A stretch of DNA of 64,000 nucleotides from Planctomycetota bacterium (GTDB lineage Bacteria; Planctomycetota; UBA8742; UBA2392): positions 1 to 64,000 of the forward strand of contig JADLAK010000056.1 of NCBI GenBank assembly GCA_020848275.1, in the 5' to 3' direction. A model generated the notes under the pieces. The model had not been told where the DNA came from, did no database searches, and worked only from the letters and a program-made list of their open reading frames with translations. Position 1 is the first letter of the stretch; the number at the start of each line of letters is the position of its first letter. Made by a program: the position numbers and the translations under genes. This document shows positions 26,882 to 60,158 of the stretch, in pieces.

Positions 26882-26964
26882 GGCCACGAATGAACACGAA
26901 TTCTCACGAATCTTTGAATGCGCTCTTGCTGTCAATTAGTGTTTATTCGTGTGGATTCGTGGCC
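26882..26964. repeat. CACGAAT palindromic intergenic element, copy 1: GGCCACGAATgaaCACGAATtctCACGAAT ... ATTCGTGtggATTCGTGGCC
   Basis: Direct heptamer repeats in the left arm and their reverse complements in the right arm. Family members are at 40147, 41284 and 60091. Confidence 0.6.
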
Positions 26965-27006
26965 AAATAACGGCTGTCTAAAAGCCGTTGCGTTCGACAA
27001 AGCGAG

Positions 27007-27567
27007 ATGACCATGACCGACATCAAAGCCGCACGCGAAGAACTGAAAAAACTGATTGGCGCAACGATTGCCGAAGGGCCCGTGAAACTGGCCTCGGGCA
27101 AGGTCAGCAACTTCTACATTGATGGCCGCCTGACGACGCTTTCGGGCCGCGGGCTCGAGCTGATAGGCCGCCTGTTGTTTGAACGCATGAAGCCGCTGGA
27201 AATCAGCGCGGTCGGCGGGCCGACCATGGGCGCCGACCCGATTGTCGGCGGCGTGCTGGTTGAAAGCGCCAAACAGGGCAAGCCGCTCAACGGATTCTTG
27301 ATCCGCAAGGAACCCAAGGGCCACGGCATGCAGCGCTGGGTCGAGGGCCCGGATATTCCCGACGGCGCGCGCGTTGCGATTGTCGAGGACGTCGTGACCA
27401 CCGGCGGCAGCGCCATCAAGGCCATCGAGGGAATGCGCACGCAGTACAAGCCCAACATCGTGCGCGTTTACGCGATTGTCGACCGGATGGAAGGCGCCGC
27501 GGAAGCGCTCAAGGCCGCAGGTTTTGCGTTTGAGGCGCTATTCACCAAGGCGGACTTCGGAAGATAG
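27007..27567 (+). CDS. pyrE: Orotate phosphoribosyltransferase
   Basis: PRPP-binding motif VAIVEDVVTTGGS; typical 186 aa. Confidence 0.85.
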   Translation: MTMTDIKAAREELKKLIGATIAEGPVKLASGKVSNFYIDGRLTTLSGRGLELIGRLLFERMKPLEISAVGGPTMGADPIVGGVLVESAKQGKPLNGFLIRKEPKGHGMQRWVEGPDIPDGARVAIVEDVVTTGGSAIKAIEGMRTQYKPNIVRVYAIVDRMEGAAEALKAAGFAFEALFTKADFGR

Positions 27568-27649
27568 TGGCTGGGCCCAGTGAACTACCCCAATCGAACG
27601 TCAATGAGACTCGCTGGGGCCCGCGGCCCCAGCCACTTTACATCAGAGG

Positions 27650-28615
27650 CTATTGCGTTAGCGCAGCGACTTGTTTCCATGCCCAATCGGAATCGTTGGC
27701 GGTCACCAGTGCGCGGTAGATGTCGCCCTCGCGCCAGAACAACACACGTTTGCCGTCCACCGTGAACTCGCCCTTGTCGACGCCCGACGCCGCGTCCTGC
27801 ACCATCTTCGGCGTCAGGGTCAGCAGGACGTAGCGCTTGTCCTTATTCCACGAACAAACCAGGTAGAGCGCGTCGTCGCCCTGCACCGGCATCGTTCCCG
27901 CAACCATGCCTGAGGGCATGTCGCCCTGCATCCTGGGCATCGGCTGTTTGGGATACATGTCGCCGTGCTTTTTGGTGAAGGTGTTCCATTCGTCGAGCGA
28001 TTTGACTTCGCCGGAAAGCAGCGTGCCGGTCTTGTCGGCAAACATGCGCATACGCGCGTTGAGCGGGTTGTCGCCGGTCTTGCCGCTATTCAACGCCAGC
28101 GCCGTACCGCCTGCGCCCAGCGCCGCACAGGCAATCGCCAGCGCGACCAGCGCGTATATCGGCATGCGGACTGTGCGAAGGCCGCCGGCGCCCGCAAAGG
28201 CGTGCTCGTGTTCGTGGTCGTGATGGTGGTGATGATCGCGGTGGGAATGGTCGTGGCCGTGAGAATGCCCGCCGTGTCCTGAGCCTGTCGAAGGGTGCGA
28301 ATGATCGTGCGCGTGTTGAACAACCGGCTGCCCCGGCGCACCGCCGAAATTCTTCTGCAACGCCATGACCACCTTGACGCGAAGCGACTCCGTCACGCTG
28401 CCGCAACAATGTTCGACCATGGTGTGGGTGAGCAGGCGATTGAAGGAACTCTGGCTGTTGATGTATTCGTTGCAGTGGTCGCAGTGCTCGAGGTGTTTGG
28501 CCAGGCGCTCTTTCTCGTCCGGCTCGAGTTCACCATCAAGAAAGCCCGACCACTTCTGCCAGACTTCGCGGCAGCCTTCGTGCATGGTGGATCCCTTGTC
28601 GTGTTCCGGGTTCAT
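27650..28615 (-). CDS. Zinc-finger (ZAS-type, HxxxCxxC) anti-sigma factor with a His-rich tract, TM helix and C-terminal extracytoplasmic domain
   Basis: HLEHCDHC motif; HAHDHSHPSTGSGHGGHSHGHDHSHRDHHHHHDHEHEH; TM helix IYALVALAIACAALGAGG; lies 8 nt downstream of the ECF sigma gene. Confidence 0.65.
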   Translation of the reverse strand: MNPEHDKGSTMHEGCREVWQKWSGFLDGELEPDEKERLAKHLEHCDHCNEYINSQSSFNRLLTHTMVEHCCGSVTESLRVKVVMALQKNFGGAPGQPVVQHAHDHSHPSTGSGHGGHSHGHDHSHRDHHHHHDHEHEHAFAGAGGLRTVRMPIYALVALAIACAALGAGGTALALNSGKTGDNPLNARMRMFADKTGTLLSGEVKSLDEWNTFTKKHGDMYPKQPMPRMQGDMPSGMVAGTMPVQGDDALYLVCSWNKDKRYVLLTLTPKMVQDAASGVDKGEFTVDGKRVLFWREGDIYRALVTANDSDWAWKQVAALTQ

Positions 28616-28622
28616 GCCTGGC

Positions 28623-29210
28623 TCAATCGTTCAATGCGTACTCGGGACCGAGTTCGCGGACCTTGTCACGAAGGACGGACTTTGCGCGCGACAGGCGCGA
28701 CATCACGGTGCCGATTGGGATGCCAAGCTGCTCGGCGATGTCCTTGTAGGGCATTTCGCCAAGCACGTTCAAAATCAGGATTTCACGGTACTCGTCGCTG
28801 ATGCTTTCCAGCGCCTTCTTCAAGCGGCTGTCCAGCCCGTTGAGAAACGCGGGGTCCGCCATTGCCTTGGCCGCCTGCTGGGCGCCGCTGAAATCGCCCG
28901 CGGCCTGCTTTTCTTCGGCGCCGACAAAGGGCTCGACATCTTCAAAGCTTGCGCCCTCGCCGCGCGAACGCTTCTGGCGATAAAGATTCACGAAGCGGTT
29001 GAAGAGGATGCGGTGCAGCCAGGCCTTGAGGTTGGTGCCGGGCTTGAACTGGTCGAACTTTTCGTAGGCGCGCAAGTAAGCGTCCTGAAGCAAATCCTCG
29101 GCGTCGCGAGGGTTGCGCGTAAGGTGCAAGGCGGCAGTGTAAAGGCGATCCATCAGCGGGAGTGCCTCTCGCTCAAATCGCTGCCTCAACTCGGCGGCAA
29201 GGTCTACCAC
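28623..29210 (-). CDS. ECF-type RNA polymerase sigma factor (sigma-70 regions 2 and 4)
   Basis: Region 2 [16 protein letters not shown]...[16 protein letters not shown]; region 4 [38 protein letters not shown]. Confidence 0.8.
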
Positions 29211-29300
29211 GCCCGACTTTCTTAAGGCCCCGCGCCCGGGGGTTATTCCGCGATATTGGCCGCTCGCGGCGGCGGATGCAACAACTCAACAAGACCCATT

Positions 29301-30221
29301 CTACCTTTGCGGCGGGTCAAGCCACCCCGTCGAAGTTTTCTGGGGTTGCGGCTGTGCGGCGGGCGCCGAGCTAGGCCTCGGCAGCGATATTGGCTTGGGC
29401 GCTGCGACGGGCGCTGCGACGGGGGCAGGCGGCGGTTCCTCGGGCGCGCTTTCGCGCACCGTGCGCACCGTGCGGCAGAAGCTGTCGGCAAAAAGGTCCA
29501 TGCGGTCGCGGCACATGCGCGCGCGGCCGCTGAGGTCGCGCAGCGAAAAAATTTCGGTCGGGCGGATAGCGAAGCGGCCAAGCAGGCGCGTGGTCGAAAG
29601 TTTGCCCTTGTCGCGCACCATCGCTTCAAGCTCGGGCAGGCGTTCATGCGAAACTTCAAACACTGAACGCAGGACGACGAACGGAAGCTGCCACTCTTCG
29701 GCCACCGTCGCGACCGCAAGGCCGGTAGCGTCGGCGAGGTCGGCGCGCGAACGCTCAAACAGCGCCATCTTCATTTCAGGTTCGTGCGGCACTTCCGGCA
29801 CGGCGGCGAGGCTGCCCAGGCGCGAGCCAAGGCTCGGGTTGAGCTTTACGAAGGTGCGCACCATGTCGAACAGTTTGCCCGCAAGCGGCCGCGTCGTGAC
29901 GGCGCCGGCCGGCGGCACGACTTCGAACTTCTGCGCCACGATCATGTCGCCGATCTGCAAATCCGCCGTGAGGGCCGTGGCGAGGCCCATGTTGACCACC
30001 GCCACGGGACGGTCCATCTCCAGCGCCTCGCGCAGCGCCGCAGCCGTCGGTTCGCCCTCATGGCCGGCAAGCAGCACGCGCACCGAGGCGTCGCGCCAAA
30101 GGCCGCCATGAATCATGCCCGTGCGCTGCTTGTAGAAACGCGGGTTCTCGAGCTGGCTGATGATCGAAAAAGCGTCGGATTCCGTCGCGGCGACGAAAAG
30201 GATTTTGGGCAAATCGCGCAC
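29301..30221 (-). CDS. Phosphorylase family-1 (PNP/UDP/MTA-nucleosidase-like) protein, possibly futalosine-hydrolase-like, with a Pro/Ala-rich C-terminal tail
   Basis: ILFVAATESD...LLAGHEGEPTAAA...VAVVNMGLATAL pattern; the tail is PAPVAAPVAAPKPISLPRP... Confidence 0.4.
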   Translation of the reverse strand: MRDLPKILFVAATESDAFSIISQLENPRFYKQRTGMIHGGLWRDASVRVLLAGHEGEPTAAALREALEMDRPVAVVNMGLATALTADLQIGDMIVAQKFEVVPPAGAVTTRPLAGKLFDMVRTFVKLNPSLGSRLGSLAAVPEVPHEPEMKMALFERSRADLADATGLAVATVAEEWQLPFVVLRSVFEVSHERLPELEAMVRDKGKLSTTRLLGRFAIRPTEIFSLRDLSGRARMCRDRMDLFADSFCRTVRTVRESAPEEPPPAPVAAPVAAPKPISLPRPSSAPAAQPQPQKTSTGWLDPPQR

Positions 30222-30359
30222 AGGGACTCCGTGAATCCAGTTTGGACGTTCCGAGTGCGATGACGAGGCCTCAAACTGTGCCGCACGAAGTCCAACGGCG
30301 CAAGAAGTTAATGCGGCGATTTGGGCGATTACGGCGCGCGGGCGCGTAAACTCGCGGCG

Positions 30360-31454
30360 TTATTCGTCTTCTGAGGCGGGCTTCTTGCGGATGCGGCCGG
30401 AGAACTTACGGGCCGGCGGCGCAGCCGGATCTTCGAGCACGCCTTCGCGCGCCAGGCGCGCCTTCAGCGCATAGCGTGAGTTCACGGCAAGCTTGCGGTA
30501 GATGCGGCGGACATACGAACGCACCGTGTCCATCGAGATGTTCGCTGCATTGGCAACCGCGCGATAACTTGGCATGCCAACGATCAGCCGCGCCATGTGG
30601 AGCTCGCGGTTGGACAGGCGGGTGCTGCGCCGCGCTTCGGAAATCGTCACAACCACCAGCGACAACGCCGGGTTCGAGGTGTCTTCCCTCAAGCGGGCAC
30701 TGAGATGTATGCGCAGGCGGCGAACGTGGCGCGACGCCTGCTTCACCTGCGCGCTGGCGGGTTCAAGGCTGCGCAATGCGGCGATTACCGGCAGCGCGAC
30801 CTCGAGCGCCTCCGAGACAAGGTCGTCGCGGTCGAGGCGGCGGCGGTAGAGCACTTGGTCCGCCGCCGAGTTCAGCCACAACAGCTTTCCATCGAGGCCG
30901 ATCAGGAGCGCTGCGGGCGCACCGATTTCCTCAAGTTCGCGCGCCGCGTCGACAGCGTTGGTGACCGCAGCCGCGCCGAGTTCCTGCGCGCGGTCGAGCA
31001 AGTGATCGCAGGCAAGACGAAGCGTCGTACCGTCGAAGGACGCATCAGGCGTGGCATCGAGGATTGCGGCGGCGGGTTCGATTGCATGAAGGAGCTGATT
31101 CGTGCCCTCAGCAGCATGTTTGGCGTAATCCGAGCCAAGCATCTCTGCAATGCGATCATTGATCGGTAAATTGTCGAGCGCGGCGCGGCGCAGCGCGCTT
31201 TCGAGGCAAGTGCTCAAGTCCGAGGGAATATCTCGGTCGCGGAATGTCGCCGGAAGCGCACCTTTGAGACCGTGCAAGGTGGAAGCCGCAAGTTCGCGGA
31301 GGTTGCGGGACGCGTGAATACGACGGACTAAGTCGGAAAACAGGCGCAACTGATGTAACCGCTGATCTGCGCGCGCCACGGTCTGCCCCTTCCCTGATGC
31401 CAGTGGCGTACAAATTGTTCTGGCGCACATAGTTATGCAACAAAATTCGTGCAA
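30360..31454 (-). CDS. LuxR-family transcriptional regulator (C-terminal LuxR-type HTH; N-terminal domain unknown)
   Basis: LSNRELHMARLIVGMPSYRAVANAANISMDTVRSYVRRIYRKLAV. Confidence 0.7.
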   Translation of the reverse strand: MHEFCCITMCARTICTPLASGKGQTVARADQRLHQLRLFSDLVRRIHASRNLRELAASTLHGLKGALPATFRDRDIPSDLSTCLESALRRAALDNLPINDRIAEMLGSDYAKHAAEGTNQLLHAIEPAAAILDATPDASFDGTTLRLACDHLLDRAQELGAAAVTNAVDAARELEEIGAPAALLIGLDGKLLWLNSAADQVLYRRRLDRDDLVSEALEVALPVIAALRSLEPASAQVKQASRHVRRLRIHLSARLREDTSNPALSLVVVTISEARRSTRLSNRELHMARLIVGMPSYRAVANAANISMDTVRSYVRRIYRKLAVNSRYALKARLAREGVLEDPAAPPARKFSGRIRKKPASEDE

Positions 31455-31678
31455 CTCCCGAGCCTGAGATTTCGATGATTAGATAAACGTCACGTCTAAG
31501 AATGCAATCGAGGCTGCTGGGATGAGGCTTTGCGGGCAAGTTGTAACATGCATGCTACGTCACAATAAAACATACTCTTAATATGAAGCGCCCGCCAAAA
31601 TCTGGCGGGCGGCAGCACTTTTGCATGATTACCGACCAGTCGGGACAATCCCGACTAACTGGTTTTTTACATTACGTT

Positions 31679-32581
31679 CTATTTCGTTGCCGCGACGGGC
31701 TCCACCGTTTCGTCATTTAATTCCGCACTCTCGGCTGTCTCTGCAACCGTTTCGGGCAGTTCCGCAGTCGGTTGGGTTGCGCGTTTGGCCTCACGCGTGT
31801 GCAGCGCGGCGCGTGCTTCGTAGTCGAGATCGGCCGGCTTGCTGCGCGTGGCGCGCAGGCGTTCGTCTTGCTCGATACGCGCTCGTTCGATGGCGGCCTT
31901 CACCGCGCCCAGCGTGTTCATCGTTTCGCCGTGGCGGCCCTGGACCCCGGCTTTGCGCGACTCCGCAAGCCGGATCGATTCTTCGTTGCGCGACAGGCGC
32001 TCGATCTCGCGAAGCAAGCCCTGGTACTGGATCTCGAACTCGGCCTGCTCTTCACGCACCGATGCAAGCTGTTCCTGCACCGCGGCGTGCTCGACGCGCA
32101 GGACGCGGGTCTGCTCGTCGAAATCCGCGAGGCGTTCTTCGTAAAGTTCGCGGGTTTGCTCGACGCGGCTTACCAGAGCGTCAGCCTGCTCAGGCTTGTA
32201 GCGGCTGCCGCGGAAACTGATTGCCGCAGTTTTGGCGTCAGGCTTGGCGTTGCGGATGTCGTTTAGGTCGGCGTCGCACAGGTTGATGATGTCGCGAGCG
32301 CGGACACTGTCGCGATCGAGTGCGGCGAGTTGGCGCTCGACCTCGATCGACTGGGACCGCAGCAGCGCGATCTGCTTGGGATACTCGGAGCGCAGCGACT
32401 CAAGCTGGGTGCGCATGTCGTTCTGGCTTGCGATCAGCTTGTCGACTTCGCTTTGCGCCATTCCCTGCAGCGCCTTGATCGCGCCGTGCGCGCGGCCCTT
32501 GCCCAGCACGACATGGGCCAGCCCAACCGTTCCGATACCCACAAGGCCCACAATCAGCACTGTCTTGAAAAAGCATTTCAT
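31679..32581 (-). CDS. Signal-anchored coiled-coil protein (hypothetical)
   Basis: N-terminal TM helix VLIVGLVGIGTVGLAHVVL followed by heptad-rich sequence. Confidence 0.5.
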   Translation of the reverse strand: MKCFFKTVLIVGLVGIGTVGLAHVVLGKGRAHGAIKALQGMAQSEVDKLIASQNDMRTQLESLRSEYPKQIALLRSQSIEVERQLAALDRDSVRARDIINLCDADLNDIRNAKPDAKTAAISFRGSRYKPEQADALVSRVEQTRELYEERLADFDEQTRVLRVEHAAVQEQLASVREEQAEFEIQYQGLLREIERLSRNEESIRLAESRKAGVQGRHGETMNTLGAVKAAIERARIEQDERLRATRSKPADLDYEARAALHTREAKRATQPTAELPETVAETAESAELNDETVEPVAATK

Positions 32582-32908
32582 CGTTCGTCTCCGTTGATTC
32601 GAAAGTGGTTTTTCCCCCGACGCTGCTTATTGGAAAAGCGCGCGCCGCAATTTCAGGAAGCCTGCCGCGCGTACCGCATTCCGTCTCGAGTCAAAAAGCG
32701 GCGCCACAAGCGACACGAAGAGACGAAGGCACGAAGAAAGGCAACGGCATTTAACCGCGAAGGCCGCGGAGTTCGCGGAGAGCCGCCACCCGTCAGGCGC
32801 ACCAGAAGACCCTCTGCGTCCTTTGTGGTCTCCGCGGTTAAGTTTTTGCCTTTGTTGTGTAGTTGTTTTGACTCAGGACACTGGACCCCGGACTCCGGAC
32901 AGGTGTTA

Positions 32909-33541
32909 ATGCCGACCATGGCTCGCACAGACAAACGAGTTTTCTTGGGCGGTTCATTTGACCCGCCGCACATCGGCCACCTGCTGATGGCCGAGCGCGC
33001 ACGTGAGGTCTTGAAGGTTGAGCGTGTGGATTTGCTGGTGACAGCGACGCCGCCGCACGCAAAGCCGAAGAAGTCGACGGCGAATGCGGCGCAGCGCCTT
33101 GCGATGGCGAAGCTGGCCATCGCCGGCAATCGCGGGCTGGGCGTAGACGAACGCGAATTGCAGCGCAAGGGCCGCAGCTACACCATCGATACGGTGCGCG
33201 AGCTATTAAGGGAGAGGCCCGGCGTGCGACCGGTGTTCATCATCGGCGGCGACATGCTGGCGGACCTGCCGACGTGGAAAGACGTAAACACGCTGGTGGA
33301 ACTTGCGGATTTCGCGCCGGTGTTCCGCCCCGGTTTCGGCGATGAAGTGTTCAAGGGCCTGCGCGCAAAGCTTGGCCGTGATGTCGCGGCGCGTCTGGAA
33401 AAAGCGGTGATCGAAATGCCGCTTCTGGAAATCTCCTCGACGGCAATTCGTTCACGCATCAAGGCGGGATTATCGGTGCGCTATCTGGTACCAGACACGG
33501 TGCGCGCGTTTATCGACCGGGAAAATCTTTACGGGGGTTAA
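32909..33541 (+). CDS. nadD: Nicotinate-nucleotide adenylyltransferase
   Basis: VFLGGSFDPPHIGHL (HxGH nucleotidyltransferase motif), ...ISSTAIRSRI (C-terminal motif). Start chosen at ATG 32909 (MPTMARTDKR). Confidence 0.8.
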   Translation: MPTMARTDKRVFLGGSFDPPHIGHLLMAERAREVLKVERVDLLVTATPPHAKPKKSTANAAQRLAMAKLAIAGNRGLGVDERELQRKGRSYTIDTVRELLRERPGVRPVFIIGGDMLADLPTWKDVNTLVELADFAPVFRPGFGDEVFKGLRAKLGRDVAARLEKAVIEMPLLEISSTAIRSRIKAGLSVRYLVPDTVRAFIDRENLYGG

Positions 33542-33698
33542 CTGCAACTGCATTTCTCGCAGAGTTCGCGGAGGGGGTTGGACCGCCCGCCGGACCAAAC
33601 GCAAAACCGGCGTCTTGGAAGAGCGCCGGTTTCACGTTGGACTCTCCGCGTGCTCCGCGAGAGCTGCTTTTGCTTTCGCCTTTCAATCCGCAATCAGT

Positions 33699-34940: not shown

Positions 34941-35019
34941 AGGTTTAGGGCTAGGGTTAGGGTTAGATCCATATCATCCGCGATTGGGGATAGGTCTACC
35001 TATCCCCGCTTCTGCTTTT

Positions 35020-36387: not shown

Positions 36388-36550
36388 TTCTGTACCCTAA
36401 TTGGCCGAATTTAAGAGGGGCGGAGTATAACGGCTTTCCGGCCCGATGGCAGGGGCTAGAAGCAGCGTTTCAGGCGGCAGGCTTCAGGCGGCAGTTACTG
36501 GAAACTTGCTCGTTTGTAAGTGAAGGCGGACTAACGATGAGTTAGTTTCT

Positions 36551-37930
36551 ATGGCCGGAGAACACATGGCCGCCCCCCGCAAAGCTTACGACCTTCGCCC
36601 GCTCGACTTCGGCGACATCTTGTCGCGCAGCTTTTCGATTTTCACTGGCAACTTCGTGTTGTTCGCGGGCCTGTACATGCTGCTTTACTTCGTGCCCGTG
36701 GCGCTAATCACGCTGGGCGCGTGGTCGGTGATGAATAGCCGCCTCGACAACGAAACCCTCGCCAACACCTACGCTCCGATTGCCGGCGCCTATCTCGGCG
36801 TGCCGTTTTCACTCGTGCTTGCCGGCGGCGCAATTTACTACCTGATCGCGCGCGTTTATCTTGGCTCAGAGACAAGCATCGGCGAGGCCGTGCGGCAGGT
36901 TTTCCGCCGCCTTGGCTCGCTGATCGTCGCGGGCCTCATCTACACGCTGATAATGATCGGCCTGTTTGTCGCCGCGGCGCTGCCGATGATCCTGGCGCTT
37001 GCGTCGGCCCCCGCACATCGCAGCGGCGAGGCGATGTTGGCCGCCATGGGCGTGACACTGCTGCTATGCCTGGCGATTGTGCCGGTTTCCTACTACCTGC
37101 AAACCCGCTATGGCCTGGTGTTCTGCGTCATCATGCTGGAGGACGCGGGGCCAATCGAGGCCTTTGGCCGCAGCAGCCAATTGACGGAAAACTTCCGTTG
37201 GCGGTTGTTCGGCGTCAACTTCGTGATGGGCCTGGTGCTGGCGCTGTTGTCGATGCCCGGCGGCATCGCGCAGGGCGCGATGTCAACCAGCGAAGGCGCG
37301 GTGCCGATCATCGGCATGATGATCGGGACAGCGTGGTCCTCGGCGGTGATGCCGCTGAGCACCATCCCGCTGGTGATCTATTACTTCGACCAACGCTGCC
37401 GCAAAGAAGGCTTCGACCTTGCCGTGCTGGCGCAGAGTTTCGGCGTCGACCCGAGCACGCTTCCTCAATATCAGCCGGGTTATTACGGCGGCTACGGCCA
37501 GCCGGGATACCAGCAAGGCTACATGCCCCAGGGTTACATGCCCCAGGGCTACGTCCCGCAGCCGGGATATCCACCTCAGCCCGGCTATCCCCCTCAGCCT
37601 GGTTACACGCCTCCGCCGGGTTACGCAGCGCAGCCGGGATATCCACCTCAACCGGGGTACGCGCCGCAACCGGGTTACCCGGCGCAACAGGGCTATCCGC
37701 CCCAGCAGGGTTACGTCCCGCAAGCCGGGTACGCCCCGCAGGCAAGCTACGCCCCGCCACAACCACAGACGCGCGCGGTCAACCGCAGCGACCTTGCACC
37801 CTGGGAGCAAACCGGCGCAGCCCCCGGCAGCGCACCGCCAGCGGATTCGCACGGACCGGGGACACCGGCGTCCCGGCCGCCGCAACCACAAGTGCGCCTG
37901 CCCGCACCCCGCCGCAACCCGCCGGCGTAA
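36551..37930 (+). CDS. Polytopic membrane protein (~7 TM) with a C-terminal tandem PGY(P/A)PQ repeat tail
   Basis: Multiple hydrophobic helices, then GYMPQGYMPQGYVPQPGYPPQPGYPPQPGYTPPPGYAAQPGYPPQPGYAPQPGYPAQQGYPPQQGYVPQAGY... Confidence 0.55.
   Translation: MAGEHMAAPRKAYDLRPLDFGDILSRSFSIFTGNFVLFAGLYMLLYFVPVALITLGAWSVMNSRLDNETLANTYAPIAGAYLGVPFSLVLAGGAIYYLIARVYLGSETSIGEAVRQVFRRLGSLIVAGLIYTLIMIGLFVAAALPMILALASAPAHRSGEAMLAAMGVTLLLCLAIVPVSYYLQTRYGLVFCVIMLEDAGPIEAFGRSSQLTENFRWRLFGVNFVMGLVLALLSMPGGIAQGAMSTSEGAVPIIGMMIGTAWSSAVMPLSTIPLVIYYFDQRCRKEGFDLAVLAQSFGVDPSTLPQYQPGYYGGYGQPGYQQGYMPQGYMPQGYVPQPGYPPQPGYPPQPGYTPPPGYAAQPGYPPQPGYAPQPGYPAQQGYPPQQGYVPQAGYAPQASYAPPQPQTRAVNRSDLAPWEQTGAAPGSAPPADSHGPGTPASRPPQPQVRLPAPRRNPPA
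37518..37765 (+). repeat. In-frame tandem 18-nt (hexapeptide PGYPPQ-like) repeat array inside the CDS
   Basis: cagccgggatatccacctcagcccggctatccccctcagcctggttacacgcct... about 13 units. Confidence 0.7.
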
Positions 37931-37933
37931 CCA

Positions 37934-38015
37934 TTTTGGATTTTCAGTTCTGGATTGTGGCGCGACGACACCCGATGGCCCCTCAATCCAAAATCCAAAA
38001 TCTAAAATCCAAAAC
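37934..38015. repeat. Palindromic TTTTGGATT-based element (arms ttttggattttcagttctggattgtgg / ccaatccaaaatccaaaatctaaaatccaaaa)
   Basis: ~27-nt imperfect inverted arms around a GC-rich loop, between the membrane-protein stop and the DUF4129 start. A related TGGATTG direct repeat is at 48436-48466. Confidence 0.5.
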
Positions 38016-38043
38016 CAGGCGCCGCCGCTACCATACGCGCCCA

Positions 38044-38781: not shown

Positions 38782-40145
38782 AAGGCCAGACCGAAAACCT
38801 TCGCAAGCGACTGCTCACGCCCAAGATCGGCGGTCGCGAGACGATGTTTCGCTGGATCATGCTGGGCGTTTTTGCCGCCGGGCTCGGCTACGTGCTGATC
38901 CGCGGCGTGTTCGAACAACCCAAAAAGCCCGACAACTTCTCCAACAGTTACAGCGCCTCGCCCGGCGGCCACAGCGCGCTGGCGGAATTGCTCAGCGACC
39001 TCGGTTTCAAGGTGCAGCGCCGCGTCACGCCCCTGAATCGCCTCGGGCCTGAGTATTACGCGCCGGGCGGAAGCTGCGTCACGGTTCTGGAGCCCGACCC
39101 GGAACAAGTCGCCTCCAACAAGCGCGAGTTCAAGGACCTGCTTGGCGAAAACTGGCGCAGCCCGCGCGCGATCATCGCCCTGCCCAAGCGCTGGTACTAC
39201 GACACCCACGGCGGCGGCAAAGGCATCGTCGAAGTCGGCGAAGGCTGGTACCGCATCAGCGATGTGAACATCGTGCTTGCGGCGTGCGGCCTGAGCAGCG
39301 AACTCTCCGTGTTTCGCACCACGACCGAAACTTTTCTCTCGACTCCCAACCCCAACGCCTGGCGGCGCGAACACCCGATGTTCGGCGACGATGAACCCGT
39401 GCCGGAGTGGCGCGACCCCCTGCGCACGCGCCTGCACACCGAGCCCATCCAGGCCTTCCGCTTCGCCGACAACGGCGCACGCGGAAAGTACGAAGTGCTG
39501 ATCCAGACCGAACAAGGCGACCCGGTGGTAATCCAGCCGCGCGTCGAGCTTGGCCTGTCGCGCGCGATTTTGGTCAGCGACGCCGATTTTCTCAGTAACC
39601 GGTTCATCGGCCAGGGTAACGCCGCGGCGCTGGCGATGAAAGTTTTTCGCGCCGCCGACACCCGCACCTTCGACATCGACGAATCGATGCACGGGCTGGC
39701 GTCGCAGGCGTCCATTGAATATCTCGCGGCCACGCCGCCGGGCCTATGGTTCACGCTTTCGCTCTTCATCGTGCTGCTGATGTTCGGCTGGCGCGAGGCC
39801 ACGGTGCTGCGGCCAGCGGTTGCCGACACCGAGACGCGACGCTCGCGCGGCGTCGTGATCGAGGGCCTGGCGCGCATGATGGCTCGGGCGCGCGATTACG
39901 TGACGGCCTCGACGGCGCTTTTACGCCGCGCACACAACCACCTGGGCGCGGGGCCGGTGCAGGTGCACGCCTCGGGCATGGCGGGCTCGACCTCGAGCGC
40001 GCTGGCCAAGGACCAGAAGGCTACGCTGGAGGCGATCAAGATCATTCCCGGCGAAGGCGCCCTGAACGTACTGCGCGCCGCACAAACAGTTTCGTCGCTG
40101 AAAAATAAAGAACCGCGCAGGGCAACGCCGCAGAAAAAGACTTGA
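38778..40145 (+). CDS. DUF4350-like protein (N-terminal TM helix, periplasmic domain, second TM helix) of the MoxR/DUF58 neighbourhood
   Basis: TM helix WIMLGVFAAGLGYVLI, then NSYSASPGGHSALAELLSDLGFKVQRR (DUF4350 hallmark), late TM helix LWFTLSLFIVLLMFGW. Confidence 0.55.
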   Translation: MKGQTENLRKRLLTPKIGGRETMFRWIMLGVFAAGLGYVLIRGVFEQPKKPDNFSNSYSASPGGHSALAELLSDLGFKVQRRVTPLNRLGPEYYAPGGSCVTVLEPDPEQVASNKREFKDLLGENWRSPRAIIALPKRWYYDTHGGGKGIVEVGEGWYRISDVNIVLAACGLSSELSVFRTTTETFLSTPNPNAWRREHPMFGDDEPVPEWRDPLRTRLHTEPIQAFRFADNGARGKYEVLIQTEQGDPVVIQPRVELGLSRAILVSDADFLSNRFIGQGNAAALAMKVFRAADTRTFDIDESMHGLASQASIEYLAATPPGLWFTLSLFIVLLMFGWREATVLRPAVADTETRRSRGVVIEGLARMMARARDYVTASTALLRRAHNHLGAGPVQVHASGMAGSTSSALAKDQKATLEAIKIIPGEGALNVLRAAQTVSSLKNKEPRRATPQKKT

Positions 40146-40146
40146 T

Positions 40147-40212
40147 CCACGAAAGAACGCGAATTCTCACGAATTCGGGTTTCTATTCGTGCCTATTGGT
40201 GAAGATTCGTGG
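40147..40212. repeat. CACGAAT palindromic intergenic element, copy 2
   Basis: CCACGAAAgaaCGCGAATtctCACGAAT ... ATTCGTGcctattggtgaagATTCGTGG, between the DUF4350 and MoxR genes. Confidence 0.55.
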
Positions 40213-40260
40213 TGACTGGTTTTGGTTTTTCGATCAGGCAAACAAAAAGGATTCACACGC

Positions 40261-41277: not shown

Positions 41278-41283
41278 TTTTTC

Positions 41284-41483
41284 GCCACAGATGAACACAG
41301 ATAACAGCAACCGCAGTAATCCACGGAAGACACGGAGAGCACGGGAAAAACAAAACGGTTTGAGCCACGAATTCACACCAATCATCACGAATTCTACGCC
41401 TCAGATTCGTGCCAATTCGTGAAGATTCGCGGCTCACCGGCTTTGCCGTCTCAGTTTTCCGTGAATTCCGTGGCCTCCGTGGA
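41284..41483. repeat. Compound CACGAAT/CACGG palindromic element, copy 3 (nested inverted repeats)
   Basis: The outer arms ccacggaagacacggagagcacggg / ccgtgaattccgtggcctccgtgg pair as an inverted repeat, and so do the inner arms ccacgaattcacaccaatcatcacgaattc / gattcgtgccaattcgtgaagattcgcgg. The 5' edge carries CACAG repeats. Confidence 0.55.
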
Positions 41484-44715: not shown

Positions 44716-44729
44716 GTTTGCCTTTGTTG

Positions 44730-48433: not shown

Positions 48434-48474
48434 TCAATTGTGGATTGTGGATTGCGAATTGCGGATTGAAAGGC

Positions 48475-49776: not shown

Positions 49777-49808
49777 TGGCGAATCCTCTGAGACGCCCCC
49801 GGCCCGGG

Positions 49809-52590: not shown

Positions 52591-52683
52591 TTGGACCAAT
52601 GCTGTAGGTTCCCGCTCCCTGGCGGGAACCTCCCCCGAAACGAGATACCCCGCGTAGAAAACGTAGTGCAAGGAGAGATGTTT

Positions 52684-53862: not shown

Positions 53863-53934
53863 CATCGCAGCCCCCTTGGCATGAACTTGAGGTCCCCGAC
53901 TCCGACTTACGTGACGATGCACAGGAACCATACC

Positions 53935-55296: not shown

Positions 55297-55350
55297 CCGC
55301 GGTGCAGTGAAACTCGGTGCTAAAGAGGGGACCTCCCCTCCCTACAAGGA

Positions 55351-56634
55351 ATGAAGAACATGAAGAAGCTAATGACGAGCCTGGGGTTGATCGCTGTGAG
55401 CGGCCTGATGGCCGGCCAGCTTCAGGCCGGGTTCTCGCTGTTCGACACCGCCAAGGACTCTGGCTACATCGCACGCGGTCGCTTCATCGGCCTCGAGCGC
55501 ACCGCCGGCGGCGACCGCCTCACCTTCCGGCTTGATTCCTTCATCAAGGGAAGCATCGCCGAAACCGAAGTCGTGATCGAGCCTTTCGACAAGGCCTATA
55601 ACGATGTCGCGGTCGGCCAGGATGCGATTGTCGGCTTTACCCGAAGCAATGTTGATCAGAAGTATCGGACGTCATGGGGTATCCGCAGCATCTTCCTGCC
55701 AAACCAGAACCTCACCAGTTGCGATACCGCGCTGCAAAACCTCGTGGCGATTAACGCGCCCTACCAGGCCGTGATCGACGCCGAGCTTGCCAAACGCGCC
55801 GAGTACCAGGACCCGGGCTACGAAGGCGTGTTCCCCGGCGCCTTGATGGAAGCCTGGCGCACCGAGCTGCTCTCGCAGATTTCCCTGGCCGGCTCTGACG
55901 CCGCCAAGAGCGCGGCGCAGGTCCTGGTGGAGCACAAGCTGTTCAAGGGCACTGTTGGTCCCAGCCAGTTGGCCCAGTACGTGGCGCCGCGCGTCACACT
56001 GACGCCCTCGGGCACCAAGGAACGCGCTTATGTGCTGATGCTGATTGGCAGCCAGCCCAGCCTGTACCCGAACACCGATGAATTGTTCACTATGCTGGGG
56101 CAGGAAATGCCGAACTCGGAAATCTCCTGCGCCGGCCACATTGCGGGCCTGCTGCGCATCAAGCCCCGCACCGACGTCGTCACTCGCCTCCAGACTCTGG
56201 TGACCGGTGACATCGATACGCCGGTCAAGGCCAACGCCCTGTTCGTCGCTGAAACCCTGAAGGACATCTCCACGCTGCCCATGGTCCAGGGCTTGCTGAC
56301 GGCGCAGAGCGCGCTTGGCGCCGACGCCGACCTCACCCTGACCCGTGCCGCTCTCAAGGTTTTGCGCGCCACGCCCCACAGCAGCAGCGCCCAGTTGCTG
56401 GTCGACTTCCTTGCCAGCGACCTGTGCAAGCAGGACAAGAACCCTGACACGTGGTGGGAAATGACTCGTCGCGGCATCGTCGCCTACGCCATGATCAACA
56501 ACCCCACGACCAACGCCAAGGTCCGCGAGTGGTTCTTTGCGGCTGAAGGCGCCCGCCGCCAGTATCTGCGCTTCATGATCGAAGAGAACAAGGATTGGCG
56601 CCCAGTGGTGATGATCTTCAACGAAAAGAACTAG
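55351..56634 (+). CDS. Secreted protein of unknown function (probably helical-repeat)
   Basis: Signal peptide MKNMKKLMTSLGLIAVSGLMAGQLQA; no catalytic motif recognised. Confidence 0.45.
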   Translation: MKNMKKLMTSLGLIAVSGLMAGQLQAGFSLFDTAKDSGYIARGRFIGLERTAGGDRLTFRLDSFIKGSIAETEVVIEPFDKAYNDVAVGQDAIVGFTRSNVDQKYRTSWGIRSIFLPNQNLTSCDTALQNLVAINAPYQAVIDAELAKRAEYQDPGYEGVFPGALMEAWRTELLSQISLAGSDAAKSAAQVLVEHKLFKGTVGPSQLAQYVAPRVTLTPSGTKERAYVLMLIGSQPSLYPNTDELFTMLGQEMPNSEISCAGHIAGLLRIKPRTDVVTRLQTLVTGDIDTPVKANALFVAETLKDISTLPMVQGLLTAQSALGADADLTLTRAALKVLRATPHSSSAQLLVDFLASDLCKQDKNPDTWWEMTRRGIVAYAMINNPTTNAKVREWFFAAEGARRQYLRFMIEENKDWRPVVMIFNEKN

Positions 56635-56884
56635 CAAGGTTACTGACAGACCTCGCTCCAAAACTCAGGGTGTCGGCTCGTTGCCGGCGCCTTTGAGTTT
56701 TTAATGCGCTAACTGGTTCGTTTGAAGCGCGCCGAGCTTTTCCAAGACGATGGAGCGAGCTTTTGCGCTGCGCCGGGCGAGCAGATCGAGAAAGCCACGC
56801 AGAGCGAGGCCGACGCCGAGATGCGATGCCCGCCACAAGCAAAAGCCGCTACAGCGTTGCAGGAAATGCTCGTACAATGCGGCC

Positions 56885-58033
56885 ATGAAGACGAGGCTGG
56901 CCCTATCAGCTTCAGTACTCCTCGCCGCAACATTGCTGGCGGCATGCGCCTCGGCGCCGGCGCCCAAACCTGATGACGGGCCCGATGGCACCAGCCTGCG
57001 CCGTTACACCGGCCTTCCGCTGACGTTGTCCGAGTTCAATGAAAACCGCGGCGGCGCGATTTCCGTCTGTCGCGTGCTGGCGGCGCTGGAACGCGACCTG
57101 CATGAGCAATCAAACGAAGCCCGCGATGCCGAAATCCTGGTGGACCAGGCCACACGCAGCGTTGGCAGCGACCTGCGCACTGCGCGCGAATTGTGGCTGG
57201 GCGCCGAGCGCGTGCCTCCGGGCGCAGGGCGCGAGGTATTCCACGAATACGGCTACTACGGCGGCGAAGCGGAGCACGAACTGTTTGCGCCGCGCAACGC
57301 CATCCCTTCGCTGGGCGCCGAGGCGGCGCGCCTGCTTGAAACCCACGCCGACATGTCGCCGCGCGGGCAACTGCTGGCGGGCTGGCGGCATTTCGCGCCC
57401 GAGGTGCGACAGCGCGCCGAGGGTTACCTGGCGAGTTCGTGGCGCTTTGAGTTGGTATCGCGTGGCAGCGCCCGCGTCAGCCTTTGCGACAGCCTGTTAG
57501 GCCCCTTTGAACGCTCACGCGTCGAAGACGCCGGCGACGCTTACCTTGCCGGACCGATCATGCTCTACGAGGGCTATAGATGCCCCCAGGGCCTGATGGA
57601 ACTTGTGGTTGAGGGCCCGGCCTCGCCCGTTGCGGCGACGATCAGCGCCCTGGCGCGCGTCGGCCGCGGCGAAAAAGCTGAATTGCCGGTGCTGATCGCC
57701 GAGGGCTACGTGCGCGTCGATCTTTCGAAGGAAGACCGCGCGTTCCTGTCCGCGGCGCTCAAGGGCTTGTCGCAGGGCTACGCCGATGTCGCGGACCTGC
57801 CCCTGAACTGCCGGCGCTTTGACGTAACCTTCAGCTACCTGGTCGATCTCAACGAGGCCCGCGCAACCCTGGGTTTCAAGCGCATCGCCGACGGCTGGTC
57901 GCTGGAAAAATTCGTCTACGAACCCGCTGCCGCGCAGGTCATGCGCCGCAACGTCAGCATCGACATGATGGAAATGGTCGCCGCCGCGGCATCTGGCAGC
58001 GCCACGAAGATGATCTCGGCGCGCAGGAAGTAA
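56885..58033 (+). CDS. Lipoprotein of unknown function (lipobox LAACAS)
   Basis: MKTRLALSASVLLAATLLAACAS; start at ATG 56885 within the longer track ORF. Confidence 0.5.
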   Translation: MKTRLALSASVLLAATLLAACASAPAPKPDDGPDGTSLRRYTGLPLTLSEFNENRGGAISVCRVLAALERDLHEQSNEARDAEILVDQATRSVGSDLRTARELWLGAERVPPGAGREVFHEYGYYGGEAEHELFAPRNAIPSLGAEAARLLETHADMSPRGQLLAGWRHFAPEVRQRAEGYLASSWRFELVSRGSARVSLCDSLLGPFERSRVEDAGDAYLAGPIMLYEGYRCPQGLMELVVEGPASPVAATISALARVGRGEKAELPVLIAEGYVRVDLSKEDRAFLSAALKGLSQGYADVADLPLNCRRFDVTFSYLVDLNEARATLGFKRIADGWSLEKFVYEPAAAQVMRRNVSIDMMEMVAAAASGSATKMISARRK

Positions 58034-58114
58034 TGTGGCTGGGGCCGCCGGCCCCTGCGCACGTCATTGACGAGCGATTGGGCAGTTCGCTGGGACCGCC
58101 GGCCCCAGACACAT

Positions 58115-59143
58115 CTACTTTCTCTTTTCCGGGTCAATGTCGATCAGCTTCAGCGTCGCGTTGGCGCGGTCGAAGTCCGCCTTGCTGCCCCTGAAAATCA
58201 CCGAGCGCGTTTTCTCGTAGGCGCCGATCTGGACTGAATACGCCGCGAGCTCGGTCGTGAACATCTCCCTCAACACTTTCGCCGCGTCATCGGCGGTGAT
58301 GTAAACCAGCCGCGCGGTGTAGGTGCCCTCGGCATAGGCCGGATCGGCGGCGTTGGCGTCGAGCTTCTGGAGACGCTGGTGCACGCGCGAGAGTTCGTCG
58401 CGCCGGCCGCTAATCAGAAGCGTGTTCGAGGTTTCGTGCAGCGTCATCTTCCAGCTTTCACCCTCGGCGCGAAGGCGCTCCATAGCTTGCGCGTACCGTT
58501 TGACCTGGCCGTTGCGCGGCGCGAAATCCTGCAGGACGAGGTCCTCGTCGCGCACGGCGGCATTGTCCGCCGCACGTCCGACCGCCAGCGCCGCAACAAG
58601 CCTGTCGGCGAAGTCCGAGACAATCAGCGTGTGCGTGGGCTCGAAAATTTCCACATGCCCCGATTGCGGCGACAGCACGCGGCGCACCTCACCGGCAAGT
58701 TTGGCAATGTCCGTGCGGGCGGCCTTGATGGCGACGGCGGCGAAGTAGTGTTTGTTGAGGTCGCGTTCGTCCTCGACAAAGGGCGCGTAGCGCGCGGCGT
58801 CCTGCCCGCGCACAAGTTGGTAGGTCGGGCCGGGCAGGCCCTCGACTTCGAAGGCCACGAGGTCGCAGCGGCGCAGCACCTCGAACAACAGCAGGCGGCG
58901 CGAGCGGTCGTCCTTGGGCGCGGTCGTTTCACTCGTTACGCGCCGGGGTTTGCCGTCTTCGCCGTTGAGCTCGGCCGCGTCGTAGACAAAGCCGCAACCA
59001 AGCGCGTCCTGCGCCCATTTCAGCACGTCGGTGACCGGCGCGTCCTTGAACTTCGGGTCGGGTTTGACCTCGTCAGCGGTGGAGGCGACAAACCCGAAGC
59101 ACAAGCAGCACACAAGCGCCGCGGCAAACGTGGACATCTTCAT
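58115..59143 (-). CDS. Secreted protein with three Secretin_N (NolW-like) type repeats but no secretin pore domain
   Basis: Signal peptide MKMSTFAAALVCCLCFGFVASTA. Repeats THTLIVSDFADRLVAALAV / SNTLLISGRRDELSRVHQRLQKLD / RSVIFRGSKADFDRANATLKLIDID. The start ATG at 59143 overlaps the upstream gene's stop (ATGA). Confidence 0.45.
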   Translation of the reverse strand: MKMSTFAAALVCCLCFGFVASTADEVKPDPKFKDAPVTDVLKWAQDALGCGFVYDAAELNGEDGKPRRVTSETTAPKDDRSRRLLLFEVLRRCDLVAFEVEGLPGPTYQLVRGQDAARYAPFVEDERDLNKHYFAAVAIKAARTDIAKLAGEVRRVLSPQSGHVEIFEPTHTLIVSDFADRLVAALAVGRAADNAAVRDEDLVLQDFAPRNGQVKRYAQAMERLRAEGESWKMTLHETSNTLLISGRRDELSRVHQRLQKLDANAADPAYAEGTYTARLVYITADDAAKVLREMFTTELAAYSVQIGAYEKTRSVIFRGSKADFDRANATLKLIDIDPEKRK

Positions 59144-60024
59144 GGCTTTTCTTTCTGTGTCGAGGACCGCTGTGCGGCGATCATGCCGAACGCAACGCCC
59201 GTCAGCAGCAACAACCCGCCCGCAGCCTGGAGCGGCGTGAGCGTAGACTTCGCAAAAACCTCGAACTGGTCCTTCAGCGCCAGCATCATCAAGAGCGCGA
59301 TCACGGGTTCGCCCAGGATCGCCAGGTTGATGTAAAACACCGGCACGTACTTCACCGCATAATGAAACATCGAATGGCCGATTAAAGTTGGGATCAGAAT
59401 GGCGCAACCGAGAAAAATCCACGTCTGGCCGGGGTAGCCCCAAAGCGCGTCGCCCTTGGCCAGCGCCACCGCAAGGCTGGTCAGGCCGCCAATGCCGTAG
59501 AGCGCCGTCAGGTAGCCGACCAGCGACATTTTGGGCCGCAACCCGCGCCCGAACGAATAACTGATCACGATAAGCAGGCAGCACGCGAGCACCATGCCGT
59601 CGCCGATCAATTGGCGCATATCGGTAATCGAGTCGTTCCAGCCAAACAGCACGATGCCGGCAATGGCGATAATGCTGCTTATGGCGACCCAGCGCGTGAT
59701 CGGCTCCTTGAGCCAGATCGCGCCGATGGTCGCCGCCATCAGCGGCTGCGCGCCAAGCAGCACGACGGCGCTTTCCTTGCTTGTGTGGTCAAAGGCCCAG
59801 GTAAAAAACACGAAGTGAAAGCCATAAAGCACGCCCGAGAGCAGCAGTTTCAGGCGGTCGGCGGTATTCAGCCGCTTGAAATCCTCGGCCAGCCGCGGCG
59901 CGGCCAGCGGCATCAATATCAGCGTTACGCTGAGCATGCGCCAGGCGGGCAGCGCAAAAGGGCCAATGGGCGCGAGCAGGATAAAGGGCCCCGCGGTCGA
60001 AACCGCGATCAGGCCAATCAGCAT
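59140..60024 (-). CDS. EamA/DMT-superfamily transporter (10-TM drug/metabolite exporter family)
   Basis: Two EamA-like halves of hydrophobic helices. Start placed at MLIGLIAVS (ATG 60024), because the longer track ORF would run through the repeat element at 60091-60158. Confidence 0.6.
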   Translation of the reverse strand: MLIGLIAVSTAGPFILLAPIGPFALPAWRMLSVTLILMPLAAPRLAEDFKRLNTADRLKLLLSGVLYGFHFVFFTWAFDHTSKESAVVLLGAQPLMAATIGAIWLKEPITRWVAISSIIAIAGIVLFGWNDSITDMRQLIGDGMVLACCLLIVISYSFGRGLRPKMSLVGYLTALYGIGGLTSLAVALAKGDALWGYPGQTWIFLGCAILIPTLIGHSMFHYAVKYVPVFYINLAILGEPVIALLMMLALKDQFEVFAKSTLTPLQAAGGLLLLTGVAFGMIAAQRSSTQKEKP

Positions 60025-60090
60025 GGCAAGCACAGGCAAGGCGCGGGAATCTGCCGGGGGCGAACTCAGAACCACCTCCAAAGACAAGTC

Positions 60091-60158
60091 GGACACGAAT
60101 TGACACGAATTGACACGAATCAGCAAACCCATTCGTGAGAATTCGTGTGCATTCGTGG
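60091..60158. repeat. CACGAAT palindromic intergenic element, copy 4 (3x CACGAATTGA direct repeats, then 3x ATTCGTG inverted)
   Basis: ggaCACGAATtgaCACGAATtgaCACGAATcagcaaacccATTCGTGagaATTCGTGtgcATTCGTGG. Confidence 0.65.

Follow-up and report, generated by a model that had tools for sequence, protein, structure and literature searches.

Positions 1 to 64,000 of contig JADLAK010000056.1 from a Planctomycetota bacterium (assembly GCA_020848275.1), referred to here as the window, contain four palindromic intergenic elements built from the heptamers CACGAAT and ATTCGTG. The same arms stand at either end of a compact, approximately 0.45-kb cassette that carries a gene for a GxxExxY protein of approximately 125 amino acids, and the family to which they belong is ancient, extends across phyla and is under selection. 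The window elements arrived by insertion and are probably non-autonomous, gene-less miniature derivatives of this cassette, in which both arms are kept and a loop of 10-23 nt takes the place of the gene. We refer to such derivatives as shells. Their lifestyle resembles that of REPINs (hairpin-forming doublets of repetitive extragenic palindromic sequences, REPs) and of miniature inverted-repeat transposable elements (MITEs), and they seem to represent a kind of REP/MITE-like selfish DNA that has not been described before. The arms were not found described in any searchable paper.

Four elements of the window

The four elements lie where the original prediction had placed them, and the gene contexts that it had named were recovered with Pfam: ribF and a pyrE-like phosphoribosyltransferase gene, DUF4350 and MoxR, MoxR and DUF58, and Memo and EamA, the last pair on the minus strand. 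The third element is a compound and is listed by its parts.

26882..26964, no strand assigned: copy 1, a hairpin without an open reading frame (ORF) between ribF (stop 26859) and the pyrE-like gene (start approximately 27007)
40146..40212, no strand assigned: copy 2, ORF-less, in the DUF4350–MoxR gap
41286..41312, plus strand: left-type arm of a third variant, either solo or degenerate, with two CACAGAT units (41286-41302; tandem repeat called at 41286-41306, period 10) and then a decayed third unit
41320..41483, no strand assigned: copy 3, outer element, a sister variant with 51-nt arms that are 73% complementary
41363..41434, no strand assigned: copy 3, inner element, in the MoxR–DUF58 gap, stem closed by AGC/GCT
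60091..60158, no strand assigned: copy 4, ORF-less, in the Memo–EamA gap, with perfect arms and a 10-nt loop

The expectation that the left and right arms of a copy have equal numbers of repeats was borne out, and their number is more regular than the two to three expected, every arm consisting of three units at an exact 10-bp period. A unit is a heptamer, reading CACGAAT on the left and ATTCGTG on the right, and is separated from the next by a 3-nt spacer. In copy 1 the left arm (26885-26911; CACGAAT at 26885, 26895 and 26905) is followed by a 23-nt loop and the right arm (26935-26961; ATTAGTG, ATTCGTG and ATTCGTG at 26935, 26945 and 26955). Its stem is closed by GGCC/GGCC, and an inverted-repeat call gave arms of 30 nt that are 80% complementary. 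Copy 2, the most degenerate of the four, has a left arm at 40148-40174 (CACGAAA, CGCGAAT and CACGAAT at 40148, 40158 and 40168), a 10-nt loop and a right arm at 40185-40211 (ATTCGTG, ATTGGTG and ATTCGTG at 40185, 40195 and 40205), and the TGA stop codon of the DUF4350 gene (40143-40145) lies within its terminal TTGATC motif (40142-40147). Copy 4 has perfect arms at 60094-60120 (CACGAAT at 60094, 60104 and 60114) and 60131-60157 (ATTCGTG at 60131, 60141 and 60151); both of its neighbors are on the minus strand, with the Memo stop codon at 60180-60182 and the likely EamA start at 60087, 60075 or 60024.

The inner element of copy 3 has a left arm at 41366-41392 (CACGAAT, CACCAAT and CACGAAT at 41366, 41376 and 41386), a 12-nt loop and a right arm at 41405-41431 (ATTCGTG, ATTCGTG and ATTCGCG at 41405, 41415 and 41425). 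It lies inside the loop of an outer hairpin of period 9, in which CACGGAA, CACGGAG and CACGGGA (41322-41346) face three TCCGTG units (41457-41480), indicating that copy 3 is a nested insertion. The nested compound with extra CACGG and CACAG arms that had been described at this site was recovered, as outer hairpin and CACAGAT arm; the latter (41286..41312) has no clear ATCTGTG partner. The CACAGAT variant flanks a GxxExxY gene in another locus, L185.

The heptamers occur 24 times in the window against an expectation of 9.0 +/- 3.3, a count that none of 100 shuffled sequences reached, and 17 of the 24 belong to the four copies. With up to two mismatches permitted, the two-unit pattern CACGAATNNNCACGAAT was found 16 times (0.56 expected), each time within one of the four. 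Six units are degenerate, changed mainly at heptamer position 4 (CACCAAT, ATTAGTG, ATTGGTG) or position 2 (CGCGAAT, ATTCGCG), and these positions are also the ones that vary across the family. All four copies have their arms in left-to-right order, with three A-CAC-n-AAT units each at a period of approximately 10 bp. They are MITE-like in size and form, being shorter than approximately 300 bp and without an ORF, with arms of 27-30 nt that are 80-85% complementary and loops of 10-23 nt. Shell arms in the proposed family are closed by a C...G pair and two to four further pairs; the closing bases are GCC/GGC in the window copies instead of the commoner AAC/GTT, and the GCC/GGC form is present at other loci as well. 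Copies 1, 2 and 4 have a spacer of their own in common, TCT, with GAA or GCA as the first spacer, which points to multiplication of the shell within this genome.

The arms bound a cassette carrying a GxxExxY gene

In locus L057, from Phycisphaerae, the two arms lie 427 nt apart around an ORF of 125 amino acids, and the arms of L022 and L036, from Verrucomicrobia, likewise enclose a GxxExxY ORF. All three ORFs match TIGR04256 (E value 1e-34 to 1e-40) as well as PF13366 (PDDEXK_3). A search of metagenome contigs that used the protein alone gave 80 GxxExxY loci in 27 different host contexts. In nearly all of them, by direct reading, the left arm adjoins the gene upstream and the right arm downstream. 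A three-unit periodic arm was present within 60 nt of 62 of the 79 gene starts and of 63 of the 73 stops, compared with 2 of 776 control windows. The flanks that failed this three-unit threshold mostly had two units, or an additional left arm and loop before the right arm. The left end of the cassette reads t-T-(T/G)-A-A-C and continues into three CACnAAT units with purine-rich 3-nt spacers; the right end mirrors it with three ATTnGTG units and then G-T-T-(A/C)-A. Gene and arms are fused, the start codon often being formed by the last left heptamer (CACGAATGg) and the stop codon overlapping the first heptamer of the right arm (T-A-A-TTCGTG). The gene occurs in either orientation between the arms (L022 compared with L036 and L057), and relative to the host genes it ran in the same direction in 11 cases and in the opposite direction in 7.

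The arm variant follows the protein tree. The nearest neighbor had the same variant for 8 of 8 genes flanked by CGCGAAT and for 65 of 66 of the CACGAAT type, and a family member at 36% identity (L248) has an arm variant of its own, ATTCACG/CGTGAAT. In a recurrent layout the gene stands between two left arms, the second of which is followed by a short loop and the right arm. It was seen in L137, L138, L156, L159, L170, L175 and L070, and also in the CGCGAAT-type loci L147, L161, L163, L182 and L199; in these loci the only right arm is able to pair with one or the other of the left arms. The layout might work as a switch by which the start codon is exposed or hidden, or might be the recombination product of a full and an empty element. 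Arms of period 7 that lie 600-750 bp apart were also considered as cassettes and were dismissed, since they enclose ordinary host genes (LysM, QueF-like and GNAT-like) and so are two distinct repeat arrays with a gene between them.

The GxxExxY family has 13,078 representatives at 50% identity (E <= 1e-3), and the residues E...D...(D/E)xK are conserved in its proteins. An AlphaFold model built on a deep alignment had a predicted local distance difference test score (pLDDT) of 93.5, and the protein is predicted to have a minimal Cas4/RecB-like PD-(D/E)XK nuclease fold. No homologue was found when solved structures were searched by sequence, and no family in PADLOC or PHROGs was matched.

Distribution, insertion and selection

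We scanned 185,579 species-representative genomes (596 Gb) with the pattern CACGAATNNNCACGAATNNNCACGAAT, for which approximately 0.3 matches are expected by chance. This three-unit arm was found at no fewer than 120 genome loci, which represent 15 phyla or more. Among the hosts are Verrucomicrobiota, Planctomycetota, Chloroflexota, Acidobacteriota, Gamma-, Beta- and Alphaproteobacteria, Desulfobacterota, Bacteroidota, Lentisphaerota/Kiritimatiellota, Nitrospirota, Spirochaetota, Actinomycetota, several candidate phyla and a Thermoplasmata archaeon. The window repeat is not specific to its genome and is one variant of a cross-phylum family whose full form carries the GxxExxY gene. The three-unit arm is also carried by 42 stretches of IMG/VR viral contigs (L206-L247), with four to five copies in L211, L221, L237 and L240, and scans of viral contigs with two divergent GxxExxY proteins returned no relatives. 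These stretches may mediate transfer from phylum to phylum, or may be host DNA that was mis-binned.

In its commonest form the element reads T(T/G)AAC-CACGAAT-rrA-CACGAAT-rrA-CACGAAT on the left and, after the loop, ATTCGTG-Tyy-ATTCGTG-Tyy-ATTCGTG-GTT(A/C)A on the right. Arm pairs were arranged left-to-right in 55 cases, right-to-left in 10, left-left in 5 and right-right in 5, with a median loop of 40 nt. The terminal motif T(T/G)AAC always holds TAA or TGA, and the host gene upstream often uses it as its stop codon, as do the DUF4350 gene of the window and ptsI in L128 and L148; the element can thus adjoin coding sequence directly. Sister variants are found in the same loci and in the window, both with period 9-10 (CACTAAT, CGCTAAT/ATTCGCG, CACGGAT, CACCAAT, CACAGAT) and with period 8 (CACGAAG, CGCGGAG, CACAGAG). 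In the window, further sister-variant hairpins with CGCGGAG/CTCCGCG units of period 8-10 lie at 32751-32841, 33555-33663 and 25777-25856, one of them closed by TTAAC...GTTAA, and a solo CACGAAG x3 arm of period 8 without a partner lies at 32712-32738; window variants of the CGCGGAG and CACGAAG types are also found in the Verrucomicrobia loci L080, L096 and L107.

Shells can multiply within a genome. The first 3.5 kb (1-3500) of L015, from a Nitrosomonas metagenome-assembled genome, hold at least nine elements among toxin-antitoxin-like genes. These include four to five tandem, gene-less copies of approximately 170 bp with a conserved loop of 100 nt, as well as dispersed ORF-less copies; the one GxxExxY gene of this locus lies between two hairpins and not inside one. 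The arms themselves can also be expanded. An arm in L097 (7855-7973) merges into a continuous GGATACGAAT array and one in L093 (1956-2002) has at least five units, indicating that the decamer can grow by slippage. L016 and L099 contain several right-type arms of the same sense (TTTCGTG x3-GTT, ATTCGTG x3-GTT and others) spaced approximately 15-40 nt apart, with no left arms in the approximately 60 nt of flank inspected, which indicates that the arm is a module on its own.

Insertion is evident from comparison with relatives. Two of the four window sites, those of copies 2 and 3, are without an element in the nearest available relatives, which are distant (MoxR 74-77% amino acid identity). In four relatives the DUF4350 and MoxR genes overlap by 4 nt or lie close together, as opposed to the 115-nt gap with copy 2 in the window, and the MoxR/DUF58 gap is 2-20 nt without periodic arms, as opposed to 264 nt with copy 3. 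At the junction of ptsI and a nucleotidyltransferase gene the empty state is an overlap by ATGA (L252-L263), and a cassette lies exactly there in L121-L125 and L036, whose nucleotidyltransferases are 87-92% identical. The cassette at this site has NTGAA on both sides, which supplies a stop codon to the upstream gene and a start codon to the downstream one; retention of these codons by selection would explain it too. Target-site duplication as a general feature was rejected, because the first flank bases act as inverted rather than direct repeats (direct-only matches 0-5, inverted-only matches 16-60), and 4-6-mers outside the stem match no more often than in shuffled pairs. The gene junctions at which cassettes and shells are found are many and unrelated. 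The four copies within 64 kb, the arrays of L015 and the sites that are empty in relatives together provide the multiple copies and the presence/absence variation that characterize MITEs. An internally deleted gene of 89 amino acids lies between the arms of L160. A resemblance of the copy 1 loop to the 3' end of the gene was not significant and was discarded, and no orthologous pair of an empty hairpin and a filled one was found among the loci examined.

Among 40 distinct arm pairs, every position of A-CAC-n-AAT was at least 93% conserved and paired, except for heptamer position 4 and two spacer positions. Position 4 was paired in just 55-68% of cases and its substitutions were uncompensated; at the two variable spacer positions left arms kept a purine and right arms a pyrimidine. 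At orthologous host sites the ratio of nonsynonymous to synonymous substitution rates (dN/dS) of the gene was 0.06-0.08 at a dS of 0.5-1.75, and the arm cores differed by approximately 2%. These values indicate that selection maintains both the protein and the arms, and that a cassette can persist at one site for a long time. Recent transposition, in the form of near-identical cassettes in different host contexts, was not seen in the sample. L144, a candidate for a recent jump, proved to be a rearranged member of group 1.

Several other repeats of the window differ from the elements described above. A period-7 hairpin at 37934-38014 has GGATTTT-like units facing CCAAAAT units, and 48437-48468 is a period-7 array of ATTGCGG x4.6; identical period-7 heptamer arrays are present in Chloroflexota, Verrucomicrobiota and Acidobacteriota loci (L003, L006, L012, L034). 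A G+C-rich palindrome at 58033-58114 (30-nt arms, 83% complementary) occupies the entire gap between the convergent genes at 56750-58033 (plus strand) and 58115-59584 (minus strand, secretin domain), and is probably a bidirectional terminator or a member of a different repeat family. Within the ORF at 36551-37930, a low-complexity region rich in Pro, Gln, Gly and Tyr is encoded by a tandem repeat (37517-37757) that is in frame and has periods of 18, 36 and 54 nt nested in one another.

Explanations and relation to known systems

If the window elements are shells of the GxxExxY cassette, the manner of their mobilization can be inferred only in outline. The three helix-phased units of each arm would be binding sites for the GxxExxY protein, and six protomers or three dimers could assemble on one face of the DNA and bring the two ends together. 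The putative nuclease activity would then cut at or near the ends, and the unit would be copied, moved or maintained. Gene-less shells would be served in trans, by analogy with REPINs served by RAYTs (REP-associated tyrosine transposases) and with MITEs served by the parent transposase. A shell within an operon would be co-transcribed into a long, interrupted hairpin, probably with secondary effects on mRNA processing and on the translational coupling of the flanking genes. Binding of the arms by the cassette's own protein is plausible. It is possible, and we propose it tentatively, that GxxExxY proteins as a group are the enzyme partners of a new class of hairpin elements, binding phased heptamers and propagating their own cassette together with a cloud of shells in a REPIN-RAYT-like manner. 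The same tentative standing applies to the joint claim that this occurs with a different enzyme superfamily, without target duplication, and in at least 15 bacterial phyla along with some archaea and viruses.

A number of observations count against derivation of the shells from a mobile cassette. The 64-kb window, which is part of a 70.6-kb contig, contains no GxxExxY gene, none of the 42 arm-bearing viral stretches has a GxxExxY ORF, and no target-site duplication was found across 132 elements. Cassettes in different host contexts are at most approximately 80% identical in DNA sequence, and cassettes look long-lived and mostly vertically inherited. Most loops of 100-300 nt have no detectable gene remnant, L160 being the only positive case among these and the window loops. 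Of three distant family members examined, two had partial arms or none that were clear, which indicates that the link between arm and gene is widespread in the GxxExxY family and not universal. Finally, GxxExxY/PF13366 proteins have no demonstrated activity, and Pfam-based surveys list them as 'Unknown', with multiple transfers.

The elements could instead be retained for a role at the RNA level, with any spread being incidental, the transcript hairpin being processed by an enzyme such as RNase III, blocking 3' exonucleases, or sequestering the start codon of the cassette. The long hairpins of the original prediction were compared with shuffled sequences, and those of copies 1, 3 and 4 folded far better: -38.1 kcal/mol (z -6.3) for copy 1, -32.3 (z -5.4) for the inner element of copy 3, and -31.6 and -34.3 (z -4.8 and -5.2) for the two strands of copy 4. 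The value for copy 2 was -23.8 kcal/mol, and with a z of -1.7 it folds just marginally better than shuffles. The whole 264-nt MoxR–DUF58 gap folds at -90.9 kcal/mol (z -4.4), with nested helices in both the minimum-energy and the centroid structure. Because the spacers are mostly non-complementary, the predicted stem consists of three 7-bp helices split by small internal loops. The folds are stable in either transcript orientation, and by crude gene calls the elements lie mostly between co-directional (39) or convergent (17) genes and only 8 times between divergent ones. Full cassettes have their start and stop codons within the stem, and the arms are under purifying selection. On the sense strand of the gene, G.T exceeds A.C at the spacer positions (42 to 24), and the first flank position covaries, with T:A 34 times and G:C 22 times at -4/+4. 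All of this would suit an RNA element. However, 32-45% of arm pairs lack pairing at heptamer position 4, where substitutions are not compensated, so that each 7-bp helix is broken midway. A hairpin needs neither direct repeats nor a 10-bp phase. A structural RNA would drift, whereas the same heptamer is retained across phyla; left-to-right polarity is strongly favored although right-to-left pairs fold equally well; L016 and L099 have arrays of arms in a single sense; and the orthologous operons of relatives do without the elements. The full hairpins lack a T tail and were not called in a scan for intrinsic terminators, which listed only small alternative hairpins inside copy 2. In Rfam 15 the sole match of the window at the gathering threshold was a tRNA, with no family for the elements, and three full cassettes searched with an E-value threshold gave nothing relevant (best E = 0.16). 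The unpaired central base, the phase of the direct repeats, the polarity and the identity across phyla argue that the main constraint is sequence-specific recognition of DNA ends, and we consider a primarily RNA-level element unlikely. The two explanations are compatible, and a cassette origin and a hairpin function may hold together.

The reverse relationship between hairpin and gene, with the hairpins as the primary residents, appears more doubtful still. Here GxxExxY would be a homing-type nuclease that cuts cognate empty hairpins, with the gene being copied into the loop, and the window shells would be unoccupied targets rather than decayed cassettes. PD-(D/E)XK homing endonucleases do exist (I-Ssp6803I), and I-Bth0305I is among weak fold matches. 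Insertion into a loop is seen in the nested copy 3, the gene lies in either orientation between symmetric arms, the arm variant matches the protein clade, and most empty loops have no gene remnant. Yet at ptsI, the sole resolved site, the alternative state is no element at all and not an empty hairpin. The gene has no ends of its own, as its start and stop codons merge with the innermost heptamers; the arms stay strongly constrained after occupation, which homing does not need; and the gene of L160 is decaying in place. The notion of iterated transcription-factor half-sites, raised in the original prediction, is rejected as very improbable, whether the factor is a host regulator or a nucleoid protein that binds three sites per arm on one helical face and regulates the neighboring genes. 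An exact 10-bp phase does set the units on one face of the helix, and a conserved core with a free central base (CAC-n-AAT) does resemble a protein recognition site. The flanking genes are nevertheless unrelated (ribF, pyrE, MoxR, DUF58, EamA, ptsI and many others), the elements occur in all orientations between or after genes inside operons and not at promoters (8 of 64 in divergent gaps), relatives have the same operons without the sites, and the arm variant covaries with the enclosed GxxExxY protein rather than with a host regulon. Least credible of all, and likewise rejected, is a chance or mutational origin without function or mobility, in which slippage gave the tandem repeats and template switching the inverted copy. 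The same genomes hold many other short tandem and hairpin repeats, with periods of 7, 8, 9 and 10, and the arms of L093 and L097 have expanded to five units or more; but the counts are far above those in shuffled sequence, an identical set of 21 specified bases recurs in unrelated phyla at 120 loci or more, the arms adjoin a conserved gene at precise junctions, and the arms are under purifying selection. Descent of the window elements from the GxxExxY cassette is the probable explanation.

The REP/MITE-like behavior that had been proposed for the elements holds in that they are dispersed and palindromic, have empty sites in relatives and share their ends with a gene-carrying form, but the features that define REPs and the target-site duplication of MITEs are not reproduced. 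A REP is a single imperfect palindrome of 20-40 bp with a GTAG or CGTC tetranucleotide at one end (PMC3733652). The window elements are 66-83 bp long, and each arm consists of three 10-bp direct-repeat units and is not itself palindromic; in the family the ends are (T/G)AAC-CACGAAT and ATTCGTG-GTT(A/C), and those of the window copies are GCC/GGC, with neither GTAG nor CGTC. REPs are specific to a species or genus, whereas the GxxExxY arm sequence is common to many phyla. As in REPIN-RAYT systems, the repeats are short, palindromic, intergenic and dispersed, sometimes in clusters; the presumed enzyme gene is flanked by inverted repeat copies, gene-less copies are far more numerous, and there is no target-site duplication. 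The enclosed gene differs, being in 80 loci that of GxxExxY/PF13366, a 125-amino acid PD-(D/E)XK protein, and not of the HUH/Y1 type; no RAYT was seen, the search of the window's own genome being confined to the window. REPIN-RAYT systems are said by Bertels and Rainey to persist over the long term, largely by vertical descent, with the enzyme under purifying selection. Persistence and purifying selection on the enzyme are common to these systems and the GxxExxY cassettes.

The bacterial MITEs (Correia/NEMIS of Neisseria, ERIC, RUP) are also shorter than 300 bp and without an ORF, have terminal inverted repeats, occupy gaps within operons where they are co-transcribed as hairpins, undergo nested insertion, and have a longer, gene-carrying relative with the same ends, which here encodes GxxExxY and no known transposase family. 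Unlike them, the present elements lack a target-site duplication and have internally periodic terminal repeats, and the GxxExxY cassettes seem to be old and stable at their sites and not to have transposed recently. In the intervening sequences (IVSs) of 23S rRNA genes, an inverted-repeat stem that is a plausible RNase III substrate encloses a small ORF, whose family has many scattered paralogues in Bacteroidota, the Planctomycetes-Verrucomicrobia-Chlamydiae (PVC) group, Cyanobacteria and similar groups. A long inverted-repeat stem around a small ORF of a widely scattered family is thus a shared feature, but the GxxExxY elements lie between protein genes, and their ORF is not the four-helix-bundle 'IVS protein'. 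Integron cassettes with attC sites similarly consist of a compact single gene bounded by imperfect inverted repeats that form a hairpin with unpaired bases, but attC lies at one end, and the arrays adjacent to intI and the R and L boxes were not seen in GxxExxY cassettes. The heptanucleotide repeats of cyanobacteria (short tandemly repeated repetitive sequences, STRRs) and of Beggiatoaceae (TAACTGA; PMC4679880) also have conserved 7-nt units that are intergenic and common to distant lineages, and true period-7 arrays (GGATTTT, ATTGCGG) are present in the window and related loci. STRRs, however, are contiguous 7-nt arrays without a 3-nt spacer, an obligatory inverted partner or an enclosed gene.

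The three phased sites in each arm, the free central base and the codons fused to the arms mean that a small protein and short oligonucleotides are enough for a direct test of the hypothesis. Because shells split translationally coupled genes and add hairpins of 65-265 nt, they matter for annotation and operon prediction in the PVC group, Chloroflexota and Acidobacteriota, and since identical 27-nt arms recur across phyla, metagenome assembly is affected as well. Shells are also usable as markers of lineage-specific insertion. If the link between arms and protein holds, it would provide the first functional context for GxxExxY/PDDEXK_3, a family with thousands of members and many paralogues per genome. 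There is a substantial chance that these proteins are a new enzyme class behind a REPIN/MITE-like lifestyle; if so, PD-(D/E)XK would be the third enzyme class, beside HUH and DDE, that sustains miniature hairpin repeats in prokaryotes.

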